Shown in pieces: positions 1,032-52,348 of a stretch of 64,000 nucleotides of DNA. Source of the DNA: an uncultured Candidatus Woesearchaeota archaeon (lineage in GTDB: Archaea; Nanobdellota; Nanobdellia; Woesearchaeales; GW2011-AR9); the NCBI GenBank assembly GCA_902529885.1, contig CABZYC010000001.1, positions 156,177-220,176 on the forward strand. Reading direction: 5' to 3'. Below the pieces are notes generated by a model that did no database searches, was not told the DNA's origin, and was given only the letters and a program-made list of their open reading frames with translations. The position numbers and the translations under genes are program-made. Each line of letters starts with the position of its first letter. The stretch's first letter is position 1.

Positions 1032-1964
1032 TTATATAAATGCATCGAGTTGTTGCAAAAAGACAGTTGCATACACGCCCCGCGGCAAAAAAAAGTGAAG
1101 CTTAACAGTCTCTCGACGAACTTTGCACGACACAATATCTGCAGTCACTACTGTCTCACGATCACCAGCGGGTGCTTCAACACCGTACCAAGAAGGCAGA
1201 ATTAAATCTGTATAAGGAACCGTTTTTCTAGGAGTGTTACTTCGAAATGACCCATAACTATATTCAACAAGTCTACCTTTGCTTAAACCTGAAACCTTTC
1301 TATTCCAAAGGTATGCTTGGTACGCGCGTACTGCAAACTTTCTATCAATCAGAGGGATCTGTTGTAAAGATAATTTATGATCTGGTAATTTAGAAATAAC
1401 TTTCCGCACCCAATCCCTTTCAGGAAGTTTGCTTATTATGTTTACATCACCCCATTTCTTTTTAAGTTCTCTTCGTCGACGCGCAGCAACACCTATACCC
1501 CCATGAGTACACGCAGTTTTCACTGCCCGTTCAAAATCGCCAGACAAAATGTGATGAACAAAAAAACTGTTAACGCCTTCCAGAGGTGTCGCTGACCAAA
1601 ACCGTTGTTCACCAAAATAGTTCGTGAAACTATAAGTTTTTGGACATCGTTTATACCGTGAAACATTTAAATCACGAAGTACCACTTTAAACTCATTAGA
1701 AATAATGTCTGTTGACCTAATATGACGCGGGACTTTTTTAACAAAAACAAAATCTTCGTTTTGGATTATTTGTTCACTTGTCCCATACTGGACCGACACA
1801 GATTTACTATCTTTCATGCCAGCAAACCTGATATTAAATTTTCGTGCAAGAACAGAGCTTGACACATTACATTTTTTTACTTTGTACAAAAAATATTTGC
1901 CGCCAGATGGCATATCAATATGTTCAATAACACTGAAATCTTGTGCGGTCGTTTTAAGTTTCAT
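1032..1964 (-). CDS. truD: tRNA pseudouridine(13) synthase TruD
   Basis: Motif RFAGMKDSKSVSVQY matches the TruD catalytic signature (Y/F)AG(L/M)KD(K/R)xAxTxQ. The size (310 aa) is consistent with archaeal TruD. Confidence 0.6.
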   Translation of the reverse strand: MKLKTTAQDFSVIEHIDMPSGGKYFLYKVKKCNVSSSVLARKFNIRFAGMKDSKSVSVQYGTSEQIIQNEDFVFVKKVPRHIRSTDIISNEFKVVLRDLNVSRYKRCPKTYSFTNYFGEQRFWSATPLEGVNSFFVHHILSGDFERAVKTACTHGGIGVAARRRRELKKKWGDVNIISKLPERDWVRKVISKLPDHKLSLQQIPLIDRKFAVRAYQAYLWNRKVSGLSKGRLVEYSYGSFRSNTPRKTVPYTDLILPSWYGVEAPAGDRETVVTADIVSCKVRRETVKLHFFLPRGVYATVFLQQLDAFI

Positions 1965-1972
1965 TGGAAAAG

Positions 1973-2086
1973 TGGGGACGCTGGGATTCGAACCCAGATC
2001 TGCTGGTTACACCACAGCTAATCATCGTTGCCTCATCGCTCCACATTCTGGAGCCAGCTATTCTAACCAGGTTATACTACGCCCCC
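1973..2086 (-). tRNA. tRNA-Trp(CCA) with an intron of about 40 nt between positions 37 and 38
   Basis: Reverse complement reads GGGGGCG ... GCUGG CUCCAGA [intron AAUGUGGAGCGAUGAGGCAACGAUGAUUAGCUGUGGUGUA] ACCAGC AGAU CUGGG UUCGAAU CCCAG CGUCCCC A. Acceptor stem is 7 bp with one G-U. Anticodon stem is 5 bp (GCUGG/CCAGC) with loop CU-CCA-GA. T-arm is CUGGG-UUCGAAU-CCCAG. D-stem pairing is weak. No CCA is encoded. Confidence 0.65.
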
Positions 2087-3517: not shown

Positions 3518-3795
3518 TGGCAAAAGCAGTTGTAACCTTCAAACTTATGCCTGAAACTCCTGAAGTAGATTACGAAAATATTGCAACAAAGGCGTTAGAA
3601 ATCACTAAATCAGAAGGTGCAATAGGCGAACAGCGTAGCGAGATTGAACCAATCGCGTTCGGTTTAAAATGTGTTAAAGTGTTAGGAATGTTTGATGTTG
3701 ACAGTAACGATTTTGAGGCTATCAGTGCAAAACTTGCAGAACTTGAGGGTGTAACCACTGCAGAAGTTGCAAAGATGGACCTAGCTATGGGTTAA
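3517..3795 (+). CDS. ef1b: Elongation factor 1-beta (aEF-1beta)
   Basis: 92 aa. MAKAVVTFKLMPETPEVDYENI... matches the archaeal EF-1beta N-terminus (KIKVMPESPEVDLE). Confidence 0.85.
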   Translation: MAKAVVTFKLMPETPEVDYENIATKALEITKSEGAIGEQRSEIEPIAFGLKCVKVLGMFDVDSNDFEAISAKLAELEGVTTAEVAKMDLAMG

Positions 3796-4788
3796 TTCCC
3801 TTAACACATATTCTACATTACCTTTAATCACACGCTCACTAAAATGTGTTTGTGTTCCACCCATCTTTAACAAGTTTTTGAATGGAGGAACGTTACGGTG
3901 AAGTGAAGAGCATACTGCATAAACATCAACACCGCCAAACACGTCATTCTCAGATAATAACTTCTTTGCCCACTCATTATCAAGAGATTGCAAAAAATCT
4001 TTATCTTGTAATAATCCTGTATATAATGGGCCCAAAAACTGGCCCTCACCATAATTATATCTGCTTATAGTTAACTGATGATTGTGATATTGAGCATAAT
4101 GATGTTGGTCAAGCAACTTATCTACAGCTTTTTTTCCGTATTTAACACGGAAAAAAATCCGGTAATAATGGTCTTTACTATAGCTCATGATGGGTGTGAG
4201 CGCACGTTCTAATGATGCACCTTGTAATTGACAATAGCGTATCAAAATTCGTATACCTAACTCATGCATATGATTCGTACGAATATTTTTTGCCCAATAT
4301 TTTCGTCGTGCAACAGTAGGGTATGTTCCAGTGAGCGCAGCAGTGTCAGTTGCAGTAATAGCTAATATTGCACCATTACGCATGCTAGATATTGCAGCTT
4401 GGATGAACGGAGCAGGTGTTCCAAACGGGTCAAGATCTAAATAATCAAAATGTTTTACTGATTGCATGAAAACGTTTGCGTCCATATTATGAATTATAGG
4501 TAGATCACAATCATTAGCAGAAAATAAATGGTGGACTACATCCATAAAATTACTACGTTTATCATTAACATAAACCTCAGGGGCATACCCACACTCCTTC
4601 ATTATACGGACAGCACGAATCCCTGACCCAGACAATGGTAAACCTATACGAACAGGTTTAACTTTTTTGACTACTGCAACAGAAACGTCACGATGATGTT
4701 TCATGACCGGATTATAAAAAACATCCATCGATTTACACACGTCCCCTTGATGTTCTGGTAACGGTACAATTATGTTGCCTTCCTTCAT
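3781..4788 (-). CDS. trm1: tRNA (guanine26-N2)-dimethyltransferase Trm1
   Basis: DLDPFGTPAPF is the hallmark Trm1 SAM/catalytic motif. 335 aa. Confidence 0.8.
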   Translation of the reverse strand: MKEGNIIVPLPEHQGDVCKSMDVFYNPVMKHHRDVSVAVVKKVKPVRIGLPLSGSGIRAVRIMKECGYAPEVYVNDKRSNFMDVVHHLFSANDCDLPIIHNMDANVFMQSVKHFDYLDLDPFGTPAPFIQAAISSMRNGAILAITATDTAALTGTYPTVARRKYWAKNIRTNHMHELGIRILIRYCQLQGASLERALTPIMSYSKDHYYRIFFRVKYGKKAVDKLLDQHHYAQYHNHQLTISRYNYGEGQFLGPLYTGLLQDKDFLQSLDNEWAKKLLSENDVFGGVDVYAVCSSLHRNVPPFKNLLKMGGTQTHFSERVIKGNVEYVLRELTHS

Positions 4789-47515: not shown

Positions 47516-47771
47516 CTATTCCCTCTTTAATCATTGTTTCAAATTCAGAGCATTGTTTTTCAAGAACAGATATTCTAACAGTGGTTAATTCTAACTCTTT
47601 CTTTAATTCAAGTTTGAGTTTGTTAACATCTTTTTTAACTAAAATTTTACCGATTAAACGATAAGCAGGCCCTTCACCAAGATGTTGTAAAGCAGAACTT
47701 AACTCTTGCGCTTTATACTTCGCAGAAAGAAGTTCTGATTTAATATGATGAAGGTTTGGATCTTCATCCAT
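47508..47771 (-). CDS. pfdB: Prefoldin beta-like subunit (short)
   Basis: Coiled coil, beta-hairpin AYRLIGKILVKKDV, coiled coil. 1-nt overlap with rpoP. Sits in the conserved L37ae-RpoP-PfdB neighbourhood. Confidence 0.5.
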   Translation of the reverse strand: MDEDPNLHHIKSELLSAKYKAQELSSALQHLGEGPAYRLIGKILVKKDVNKLKLELKKELELTTVRISVLEKQCSEFETMIKEGIDG

Positions 47772-47905
47772 TATCGTGCTTTAACAGTCACAGAATCTGA
47801 CCTTGTTTTTAATAATAATTTGTTTCCACAATATGGGCATCTTACACGAATACGCGTATACTCTTCACCAACTTCAGCTTTACATGAAAAACAGATGTAT
47901 GCCAT
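47771..47905 (-). CDS. rpoP: DNA-directed RNA polymerase subunit P (Rpo12/RPC10)
   Basis: 44-aa zinc-ribbon protein MAYICFSCKAEVGEEYTRIRVRCPYCGNKLLLKTRSDSVTVKAR (CxxC...CxxCG). Its ATG overlaps the L37ae stop (TAATG). Below the ORF-track length cutoff. Confidence 0.7.
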   Translation of the reverse strand: MAYICFSCKAEVGEEYTRIRVRCPYCGNKLLLKTRSDSVTVKAR

Positions 47906-48096
47906 TATAACGTGTACGCACCACCAGTGAATGTCATTTGACAACTTCTACAGTTCCAAATACCTACTGCTACTCGTTTCACAGACTCTTTATTACAATA
48001 CGGACATTTATGTTTAGCCCGTGCTGACCTCTCAAAACGGTCAACTTGTTTTCGTACTCTTCGGCCGTAACGTGGGCCATATTGTTTTGCTGGCAT
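47905..48096 (-). CDS. rpl37ae: 50S ribosomal protein L37Ae (eL43)
   Basis: 63 aa. YGPRYGRRVRKQV...CPYCNK...AVGIWNCRSC zinc ribbon, which is the L37ae signature. Confidence 0.85.
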   Translation of the reverse strand: MPAKQYGPRYGRRVRKQVDRFERSARAKHKCPYCNKESVKRVAVGIWNCRSCQMTFTGGAYTL

Positions 48097-48120
48097 GATG
48101 ATTATCTCCTTATTTAAATA

Positions 48121-48207
48121 TGAGGCTGCCCGGATTTTCGTTGATTTTCGAACCGGGGTTATACCGTCCCAAACGGTAAGTGATGGACCAGGCTACACTA
48201 CAGCCTC
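48121..48207 (-). tRNA. tRNA-Pro(UGG) with a 12-nt insertion (probable non-canonical intron) in the T-loop
   Basis: Reverse complement reads GAGGCUG UA GUGU AGCCUGGUCCA UCAC U UACCG UUUGGGA CGGUA UAAC CCCGG UUCGAA[AAUCAACGAAAA]U CCGGG CAGCCUC A. Acceptor is a perfect 7 bp, anticodon stem 5 bp with U33 and G37, T-stem a perfect 5 bp. Removing the bracketed 12 nt restores a canonical UUCGAAU loop. Confidence 0.6.
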
Positions 48208-48242
48208 ACAGATAAGAATTGGAACGACTCACTTTAAAAGGT

Positions 48243-49229
48243 TTACGGTTTAAACAAGGGTCGAAGTTCTTTTGAATGGTTCGTTAATACTCTTATTTCA
48301 CCATCATAATAAAGCGTATCTTCAATCCTAAGACCATAATCTTGGTAATATAACCCTGGTTCAATAGTGAAAATGTCCCCTAATTGAACAACATCATTAC
48401 TCCTTTTACTAACACGCGGCGATTCATGAACTTCAATACCCACCCCGTGTCCTAAAGAATGAGTAAAAAAGTCTGCGTCATCACCTAAAGAGCGAACTAC
48501 ATAATTATGTAATTCCTTATAAGGTACATCTTTTTTAACCATCCTAATGGTATGATTTTGAATACCCAATAAATAAGCATACTTCTTTTTTTGATCAAGA
48601 TCCATACCATTATCATACATACGAGTCATATCACTACAATAACCGTTATACCTAGCACCTGCATCAATTAATACTGGGCCACTATTTAGTTCAGTGGTTG
48701 GCGTATGATGTGGAATCCCAGAATTTTTTCCTGATGCAACAATTACAGGATAAGCGGGTTCCATCCCCCGAAGATATATTTCTCGTTCAATCCATAATCT
48801 AGCATCAAGCTCAGATTCAATTGTTCCCTTGGGTAATAAACAAAAACGTTGTAATATTAAATCTGTACAACGAGCTGCTTTTTCAACACAATTTGCTTGT
48901 TCAATTGTTTTGTGACGACGAAAATCACGTATTTTATTAGAAACGTCAATTACTGTAAACTTTTTTGATAAATCAATATATGTTTTTGTATTTAATGCAG
49001 ACAAGTTTAGTCCTATCTTAGGAGGTAATTTCATCTCTCTCCAACCTTTAAAAAGTGATTCTTTGTCTAATTTATCAAGTTTTGTTGCATATACAGTAAT
49101 GTTACCTTTAAACAAAACACAAACCGCATAAGAATATTTTCTTCCAGTTAAAAATTCTATAGTGGGATCAGGCGTTTCAAGAACGATACAATCTTCTGTA
49201 TACATAGTATTAACAAAATTTCTTGTCAA
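48243..49229 (-). CDS. M24-family metallopeptidase (Xaa-Pro aminopeptidase/PepQ-like)
   Basis: Pita-bread metal ligands: D in VLIDAGARYNGYCSDMTR, H in HSLGHGVGIEVHE, plus E residues. Confidence 0.7.
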   Translation of the reverse strand: MTRNFVNTMYTEDCIVLETPDPTIEFLTGRKYSYAVCVLFKGNITVYATKLDKLDKESLFKGWREMKLPPKIGLNLSALNTKTYIDLSKKFTVIDVSNKIRDFRRHKTIEQANCVEKAARCTDLILQRFCLLPKGTIESELDARLWIEREIYLRGMEPAYPVIVASGKNSGIPHHTPTTELNSGPVLIDAGARYNGYCSDMTRMYDNGMDLDQKKKYAYLLGIQNHTIRMVKKDVPYKELHNYVVRSLGDDADFFTHSLGHGVGIEVHESPRVSKRSNDVVQLGDIFTIEPGLYYQDYGLRIEDTLYYDGEIRVLTNHSKELRPLFKP

Positions 49230-51457: not shown

Positions 51458-52348
51458 ATGAAAATTACTTTCCTTGGTACTACTTGTACTCAACCTACAC
51501 CTTCACGTAATCATTCAGGTATACTTATTGAAATTGATGGTGACGCAATCTTGCTCGATTGTGGAGAAGGGATACAACGACAATTACGTGTTGCTAAAAA
51601 ACGTATTACTAAAATTAAACATATCTGTGTAAGCCATTGGCACGGTGACCATTGTTTAGGGTTACCTGGATTATTAAGTAGTATGGCAAGTGACCAAATT
51701 TCTCACAAAGTACAAATTTACGGGCCTGAAAAAAGTAAACTATTTTTAAGCCATATGTTGCAAGGATTTTATAGTCACGGTGTTTGTGAACATGATTGTA
51801 GTGAACATGAACAAGGCACATTATTCAAATCAAGGATGTATAGTGTCTCTGCCCATAAACTAGTACACAGTGTACCTTCTATTGGTTTTAAAATTACTGT
51901 CTATAAACAAAGGAAAATCATAAAAGATTTATTAGAATCTAAACGTGTACCAACAACCTTATGGGGTAAACTTCAACAAGGAGAAACTGTTAAATTTGAC
52001 GGGAAAATGTACCGACCTGAACAGTACACTGTACAAGATGATCCTTTAATTTTATGTTATATTGCTGATACCATTATGGGTGACCATTTGTATACTTTTT
52101 GTGAAGATGCAGACATTATTATTAGTGAATCAACATTTTTACATGAACATGTTGAAAAAGCTAAAGAGGTGTATCATATGACCTCTCAACAAGCAGCAAT
52201 GGTTGCACATCATGTTAACGCAAAACGCTTAATTTTAACACACCCTAGTTTACGGTACAAAAATACTAAACGTCTACTTGAAGAAGCACAAGTCATTTTT
52301 CCTAATACTATGTTTGCAGAAGATTTTACAGAGGTAAACATTGAATAG
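51458..52348 (+). CDS. rnz: Ribonuclease Z (tRNA 3' endonuclease)
   Basis: MKITFLGT, HxHxDH motif (SHWHGDHCLG), 296 aa. Confidence 0.85.
   Translation: MKITFLGTTCTQPTPSRNHSGILIEIDGDAILLDCGEGIQRQLRVAKKRITKIKHICVSHWHGDHCLGLPGLLSSMASDQISHKVQIYGPEKSKLFLSHMLQGFYSHGVCEHDCSEHEQGTLFKSRMYSVSAHKLVHSVPSIGFKITVYKQRKIIKDLLESKRVPTTLWGKLQQGETVKFDGKMYRPEQYTVQDDPLILCYIADTIMGDHLYTFCEDADIIISESTFLHEHVEKAKEVYHMTSQQAAMVAHHVNAKRLILTHPSLRYKNTKRLLEEAQVIFPNTMFAEDFTEVNIE

Follow-up and report, generated by a model that had tools for sequence, protein, structure and literature searches.

A proline tRNA gene with a 12-nucleotide intron in its T-loop in a Woesearchaeota-like archaeon

The minus strand from position 48207 to position 48121 of the window, that is, the whole 64,000-nt stretch of DNA analysed here, is a real proline tRNA gene with a 12-nt intron inside its T-loop. 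The reading that we favour, with a probability of about 0.9, is that the gene is a functional tRNA-Pro(UGG) gene of an AT-rich marine archaeon in the DPANN group, with affinity to Woesearchaeota/Nanoarchaeota, and that its insert is a protein-spliced intron of the bulge-helix-bulge (BHB) type located between positions 59 and 60. The 87-nt sequence reads, from 48207 onward, GAGGCUG UA GUGU AGCCUGGUCCA UCAC U UACCG UUUGGGA CGGUA and then, down to 48121, UAAC CCCGG UUCGAAAAUCAACGAAAAU CCGGG CAGCCUC A; the complete minus-strand cloverleaf of a preliminary description of this DNA is found in it, with the perfect 7-bp acceptor stem, the 5-bp anticodon stem and its loop UUUGGGA, the perfect 5-bp T-stem CCCGG/CCGGG, and the T-loop of 19 nt. 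The D-stem has a single mismatch (U13.U22), the variable region is 4 nt long, and CCA is not encoded. Upon removal of the 12 nt, U8, A14, G18G19, G37, G53-C61, U54U55C56, and A73 are all in place, and the gene has the characters of an archaeal elongator tRNA-Pro(UGG), namely the anticodon UGG followed by G37, a cloverleaf of 7/4/5/5 bp, G18G19, U54U55C56, and A73. The features of the gene are collected in Table 1. As a separate observation, the acceptor stem (GAGGCUG; window 48201-48207 and 48122-48128, minus strand) contains an A2-U71 pair that is common to the two close relatives L007 and L008, and G2-C71 stands there in almost every other orthologous tRNA-Pro gene that was examined.

Table 1. 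Features of the tRNA-Pro(UGG) gene, positions being those of the window.
Feature	Positions	Strand	Basis
Probable archaeal promoter AAACCTTTTAAA	48233..48244	-	Putative function; 100% conserved in L007/L008
Pre-tRNA-Pro(UGG), 87 nt, G1 (48207) to discriminator A73 (48121)	48121..48207	-	Sequence, cloverleaf minimum-energy fold, ARAGORN call after intron removal
5' exon, tRNA positions 1-59, end ...CCCGG UUCGAA	48147..48207	-	BHB geometry and empty-site alignment
Anticodon UGG, positions 34-36, then G37	48169..48171	-	Sequence and ARAGORN
T-stem 5' strand CCCGG, positions 49-53 (outer helix h of the motif)	48153..48157	-	Sequence and fold
Exon strand of the central 4-bp BHB helix, U54 U55 C56 G57	48149..48152	-	Pairs with intron CGAA in the fold; covaries among orthologs
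12-nt intron AAUCAACGAAAA at 59/60	48135..48146	-	Deletion gives the 7-nt T-loop UUCGAAU; L127/L129 without insert; one loop base changed in L007/L008
Intron strand of the central helix, CGAA	48137..48140	-	Fold and covariation
3-nt bulge A-A-U60, predicted 3' splice site (cut after the second A)	48134..48136	-	Fold; BHB rule and empty-site alignment
3' exon, positions 60-73, U CCGGG CAGCCUC A	48121..48134	-	Sequence, ARAGORN, empty-site alignment
T-stem 3' strand CCGGG, positions 61-65	48129..48133	-	Sequence and fold

The gene escapes the standard tRNA finders. Across the window, ARAGORN calls a tRNA-Thr only, and the Rfam tRNA model detects the same tRNA-Thr and an intron-containing tRNA at 1973-2086, while the unspliced proline gene gives no tRNA match with either the ARAGORN intron and pseudogene options or Rfam at E<=10. 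Conversely, the deletion of AATCAACGAAAA (48146-48135) leads ARAGORN to call a 75-nt tRNA-Pro(tgg), in keeping with the earlier proposal that the loss of 12 nt yields the loop UUCGAAU. Chance does not account for this restoration: when 163,452 variants of 12 intergenic regions of the window were made by deleting 8-60 nt, a tRNA across the deletion point was called at the three real tRNA sites only. On the unspliced region, Rfam returned chance matches below threshold to DUF2815 RNA, TLS-PK2, and the sR9 C/D RNA; the last one coincides in part with the conserved upstream stretch, and the idea of a C/D guide RNA there was discarded, since the match has no proper C/D boxes and scores 17.6 against a gathering threshold of 36. 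For annotation, a gene that is missed by both ARAGORN and the Rfam tRNA model means that a bin of this lineage would seem to be devoid of tRNA-Pro(UGG), and incomplete tRNA sets in DPANN have been taken to point to undetected disrupted genes (Kaneta et al. 2018, PMC5829648). The window holds a further interrupted gene at 1973-2086 (minus strand), a tRNA-Trp(CCA) with a 40-nt anticodon-loop intron that Rfam detects and default ARAGORN misses; when modelled by hand, the central BHB helix of its intron has 3/4 pairs, which is also a hint that the endonuclease may be tolerant.

Folded at minimum energy (-31.4 kcal/mol, z = -2.8), the 87-nt precursor adopts a cloverleaf with an hBH T-arm. Above the 5-bp T-stem of this arm come the 4-bp helix UUCG/CGAA and a loop of 8 nt, with the three unpaired bases AAU bulging out of the 3' strand between the T-stem and the helix; the T-arm folded alone gives the identical motif. 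Specifically, in the minimum-energy folds, a 4-bp helix between exon and intron is stacked on the exon helix, and a 3-nt bulge lies at the predicted 3' splice site. The preliminary description had seen a possible BHB-like substrate in the hairpin CCGG..UUCG..CGAA..CCGG and had proposed to model it; the hairpin does fold in this way, in the relaxed hBH form. The strict hBHBh' architecture (3-4-3) is absent: no pair is able to form beside the 5' site, where a second 3-nt bulge and an outer helix h' would be required, and the eight bases AAAAUCAA stay as loop. As modelled, the motif belongs to the relaxed hBH/BHL form because no outer helix closes its 5' side, and this lack of an outer helix would therefore demand an endonuclease of broad specificity. 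Strict alpha4 and alpha'2 endonucleases are not known to accept a substrate with the 5' splice site in a loop. Judging from the letters of the gene, a 12-nt deletion that starts after position 57, 58, or 59 gives the identical product, owing to the flanking A residues, and only the modelled BHB geometry fixes the intron at 59/60. By the established rule, reported by Marck & Grosjean (2003) and Xue et al. (2006), the splicing endonuclease cleaves each 3-nt bulge behind its second base; it would therefore cut after A59 and before U60, releasing the intron AAUCAACGAAAA and leaving the mature loop UUCGAAU.

The comparison with orthologous loci supplies empty sites. In an unbiased sample of 20 loci, picked by similarity to the L37ae of the window only and mostly 50-60% identical to it, an intron-less tRNA-Pro(UGG) lies directly upstream of L37ae in six (L127, L128, L129, L133, L137, L144), a T-loop intron is present in eleven (L126, L130/131, L132, L134, L135/136, L138, L140, L141/142), and no tRNA is found upstream in three (L139, L143, L145). 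The sister lineages L126 and L127-L129 share the promoter and have nearly the same tRNA, and the 14-nt insert of L126 falls exactly between GTTCGAA and TCTGGG; these two blocks are uninterrupted in L127 and L129, and the window has its 12-nt insert at the same place. Presence and absence with such precise boundaries confirm, by alignment, the borders of the intron and the mature loop UUCGAAU. Moreover, the central helix is kept while the rest of the intron varies, albeit in a small sample. In an alignment of the BHB core of ten sequences, 98.9% of cells pair, as opposed to <=67% when the partners are slid. The T-loops with A57 (UUCAAA) face the intron strand UGAA in six lineages and CGAA in one, and those with G57 face CGAA; the pair between position 57 and the intron (n=10) is A:U in 6, G:C in 3, and unpaired in 1, so that, among the ten sequences, a single pair varies and supplies the covariation, and L135/L136, with A57 opposite C, depart from it. 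The non-canonical intron at 59/60 put forward in the preliminary description is thus borne out by ortholog introns of differing length and sequence at the site, by the empty sites, and by the covariation of position 57.

Three other explanations of the insert have to be weighed. That an assembly or sequencing artefact inserted 12 bases is scarcely conceivable, as the low complexity of the A-rich insert is the one point in its favour. Against it, the exact L37ae protein is carried by 15 metagenome contigs, and the six that were fetched, which derive from different samples and assemblers (JGI, ENA, Logan), are 100% identical across the tRNA region (6/6); exact-protein look-ups of the M24 peptidase (TTG start) and of RNase Z returned no match. 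Moreover, two diverged relatives (L007 and L008, M24 64% identical) retain the gene and the 12-nt insert, with an unpaired loop base as the sole change in the intron, from AAUCAACGAAAA to AAUCUACGAAAA. The same relatives argue against a decaying tRNA pseudogene, whose T-loop would have been damaged by a short duplication that left the repeat CGAAAAU..CGAAAAU as its trace: gene and promoter are conserved, with neighbouring proteins 36% different, and a change in the anticodon stem of L008 is compensatory (C30-G40 to G30-C40). Rejection by the standard tRNA finders and the direct repeat of neighbouring T-loop bases inside the insert would both suit a pseudogene, yet all the other features of the tRNA are intact, no other tRNA-Pro was found in the window by ARAGORN, Rfam, or the deletion scan, and the repeat is a requirement of the BHB helix because UUCGAA is self-complementary. 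On this evidence, we regard decay as highly improbable. A simple tandem duplication was also tried as the origin of the insert and rejected, since undoing a duplication of the flanking bases never yields a 7-nt loop.

The insert might instead never be removed, the tRNA working, or serving a role other than decoding, with a 19-nt T-loop or an extended T-arm hairpin. This is very unlikely, notwithstanding that the extended hairpin is stable on its own (-9.9 kcal/mol) and that no endonuclease gene was found in the window, where neither EndA nor RtcB was detected by Pfam on 28 ORFs or by a motif search with a regular expression for the catalytic KFG motif. Contacts between T-loop and D-loop form the elbow of tRNAs, and they would be prevented in the extended hairpin, in which U54, U55, and C56 are paired with the insert. 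Furthermore, the inserts of the orthologs range from 12 to 36 nt, are unrelated in sequence, and keep only the parts of the splice motif, and some orthologs have no insert; such a pattern is what a removable intron would give, rather than a functional extension of the loop. An insert of the same type has been excised in vitro in the case of ARMAN-2 (PMC3239211).

Under the favoured reading of a spliced intron, the gene, its fold and conservation, the empty sites, and the covariation are observed, and we infer two cuts, a ligation, and the identity of the enzymes. In the precursor, U54-G57 would pair with the intron bases CGAA to form a 4-bp central helix stacked on the T-stem, while the last two intron bases and U60 would form the 3-nt bulge that contains the 3' splice site. 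The place of the 5' bulge would be taken by A58, A59, and the first base of the intron, but inside the 8-nt loop, because the intron is too short for an outer helix. A broad-specificity splicing endonuclease (EndA) would then free the intron by one cut behind A59 and another behind the final base of the intron, and a ligase of the RtcB type would join the exons; the product, 75 nt long and with the canonical loop UUCGAAU, would then receive its CCA. Among other tRNA-processing genes, the window has those of the TruD pseudouridine synthase, beside tRNA-Trp, of RNase Z, and of a Trm1-like methyltransferase recognized by eye only (coordinates listed: 1032-1964 (-), 3781-4788 (-), and 51458-52348 (+)).

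The neighbours of the gene are an M24 peptidase, L37ae, a 44-aa RpoP, prefoldin beta, a DRG GTPase, TyrRS, and RNase Z. Beyond the two close relatives, the homologs of the M24 peptidase are <=39% identical, and those with a named source are labelled Woesearchaeota, Nanoarchaeota, or GW2011_AR9/AR15; the order M16-M24-tRNA-L37ae-RpoP recurs in Woesearchaeota genomes, and the host is therefore taken to be a divergent Woesearchaeota-like DPANN archaeon. The 12-mer of the probable promoter also precedes the orthologous tRNA in L126, L127, and L129. A TATA-like element TTTTAAAG is located at -32 to -25 from G1 and overlaps the stop codon of the M24 peptidase; it belongs to a stretch of 38 nt before the tRNA that does not vary in L007/L008, although the third-codon positions of L37ae have diverged. 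Downstream, the order tRNA-Pro(UGG), L37ae, RpoP, prefoldin beta (window 47771-48244, minus strand) is kept in ~30 species genomes of Woese-/Nanoarchaeota; in the window, the 3' end of the tRNA is separated from the ATG of L37ae by 24 nt only, including a GGAG ribosome-binding site, and the start ATG of RpoP overlaps the L37ae stop. The short distance from the tRNA to L37ae and the conserved gene order suggest that L37ae and RpoP may be co-transcribed from the putative tRNA promoter AAACCTTTTAAA.

To follow the intron more widely, species-representative genomes were scanned for the T-arm with its intron by the pattern CCCGGTTCGAA-N(2-32)-CGAANN-TCCGGG, which matched 117 stretches; the pattern contains the helix, and the resulting set shows the spread of the intron and is not independent support for the helix. 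A tRNA was scored as clean when ARAGORN called it after excision of the predicted intron with the 3' end exactly where expected. Clean tRNAs, mostly tRNA-Pro(UGG), were obtained for 25/47 of the DPANN-labelled matches, 10/22 of those in third-party annotation (TPA) bins labelled "uncultured Methanosarcinales", 5/8 of the TACK matches, and 0/27 of the bacterial ones. The L37ae-RpoP pair adjoins the match in 31 loci. In 28 of these 31, manual delimitation gave a tRNA-Pro(UGG) immediately before L37ae, the arrangement of the window, with 59/60 introns of 13-36 nt, the 12 nt of the window being the shortest; the number of Woesearchaeota/Nanoarchaeota genomes with this gene and intron is at least 28. 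The longer introns of L013, L117, L109, L054, and L011 form the helix h' of the strict hBHBh' motif upon folding, and the short ones form hBH plus a loop; over the range of 12-36 nt, the ortholog introns keep only the 3' YGAA-NN part and the rest varies. The preliminary description had T-loop introns as known from a minority of archaeal lineages only; in the clade of the host they are not rare, the scan having found them in dozens of species of Woesearchaeota/Nanoarchaeota.

Further introns were found in 13/28 of the delimited loci. These orthologs with two or three introns are L036, L034, L086, L105, L048, L053, L054, L062, L064, L091, L109, L077, and L090; besides 59/60, their sites are the D-loop (about position 20) and 37/38, and the insert of L077/L090, of ~48 nt in the 5' acceptor strand, has a position that is ambiguous between 3/4 and 6/7. 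For the orthologs with a second intron, the ARAGORN intron option proposed types such as Phe, Arg, and Ser, which were set aside in favour of tRNA-Pro(UGG) after L37ae synteny and manual delimitation. Two side observations concern the labels and the reach of the matches. The label of the 22 matching TPA bins titled "uncultured Methanosarcinales archaeon" (L016, L020, L024, L026, L041, L053, L106, and 15 more loci) looks wrong; one of them, L106, has the M16-M24-tRNA-L37ae-RpoP order of the window, with an M24 peptidase 39% identical to that of the window. In Nitrososphaera/Thaumarchaeota (L040, L051, L071, L119), both tRNA-Pro(UGG) and tRNA-Pro(CGG) have a 13-nt T-loop intron, ATTTCAACGAAAA, at the same site, almost identical to the AATCAACGAAAA of the window despite the phylogenetic distance, and both a convergence imposed by the motif and a common origin are possible.

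Being widespread and variably present across Woesearchaeota/Nanoarchaeota, the 59/60 intron of tRNA-Pro(UGG) offers a convenient test substrate for their splicing endonucleases. More tentatively, and with rather less than even confidence, the tRNA-Pro(UGG) genes upstream of L37ae could be regarded as a natural series for one intron site, from the empty site to the strict hBHBh' motif of 19-36 nt and the minimal hBH-loop of 12-14 nt, often together with D-loop, anticodon-loop, and acceptor-stem introns, with corollaries for the enzyme, the history of the intron, and the operon. If these lineages had only an EndA of the alpha4 type, the 12-nt form of the window would demonstrate that an outer helix is dispensable for cleavage by such an enzyme. 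The series, if true, would record either the progressive shortening of an ancient intron or recurrent gain at a hot spot that stems from the self-complementary UUCGAA. Lastly, the tight and conserved tRNA-L37ae-RpoP linkage could mean that processing of the tRNA frees the mRNA of a ribosomal-protein/RNA-polymerase operon.

Archaeal T-loop introns are already known, 59/60 being a listed site of non-canonical introns (PMC4090602), and the gene of the window is a tidy example that involves no new mechanism. In the T-arm, 59/60 is the counterpart of 37/38, with identical geometry. As in the canonical 37/38 hBHBh' intron, a 5-bp stem is followed by a 4-bp helix between the first four of the 7 loop bases and the intron, and the predicted cut comes after the sixth loop base, the seventh being the third base of the 3' bulge; in contrast to the canonical case, the intron sits in the T-arm rather than the anticodon arm and, for want of an outer helix h', its 5' cut site lies in a loop. 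Short T-arm inserts are also known from nucleomorph and Cyanidioschyzon merolae nuclear tRNAs, where they are removed from the precursor, although hosts and enzymes are eukaryotic there and some inserts are of 3 nt only, with no clear BHB (PMC4090602). Crenarchaeota/Thermoproteales and Nanoarchaeota have non-canonical and multiple tRNA introns (Marck & Grosjean 2003; Sugahara et al. 2008; reviewed in PMC4090602 and PMC4033280), which resemble the present one in that they depend on a BHB, occupy sites other than 37/38, and include relaxed motifs processed by broad-specificity endonucleases, and their multiplicity is matched by the orthologs with two or three introns. Their hosts employ an (alpha-beta)2 EndA with the crenarchaeal loop, whereas for Woese-/Pacearchaeota the literature suggests an alpha4 enzyme with an "L3" insert (PMC5829648); the DPANN alpha4 enzymes with the L3 insert accompany more disrupted tRNA genes (Kaneta et al. 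2018, PMC5829648), and a broad specificity has been suggested for them (PMC5829648). The closest parallel is found in ARMAN-2 (Ca. Micrarchaeum acidiphilum), whose tRNA-Pro(GGG) has introns at 53/54 and 59/60 (PMC3239211), and whose pre-tRNA-Cys(GCA) contains a 13-nt hBH (BHL) intron at 59/60 that is cut in vitro by the epsilon2 EndA (Fujishima et al. 2011, PMC3239211). The two cases differ in the tRNA concerned, in the lineage (Micrarchaeota versus Woesearchaeota-like), and in that biochemical proof and a known enzyme type are available for ARMAN-2 and the gene of the window is known from its sequence; they share the 59/60 site, a nearly equal length (13 versus 12 nt), a relaxed motif without the outer helix, and a DPANN host.
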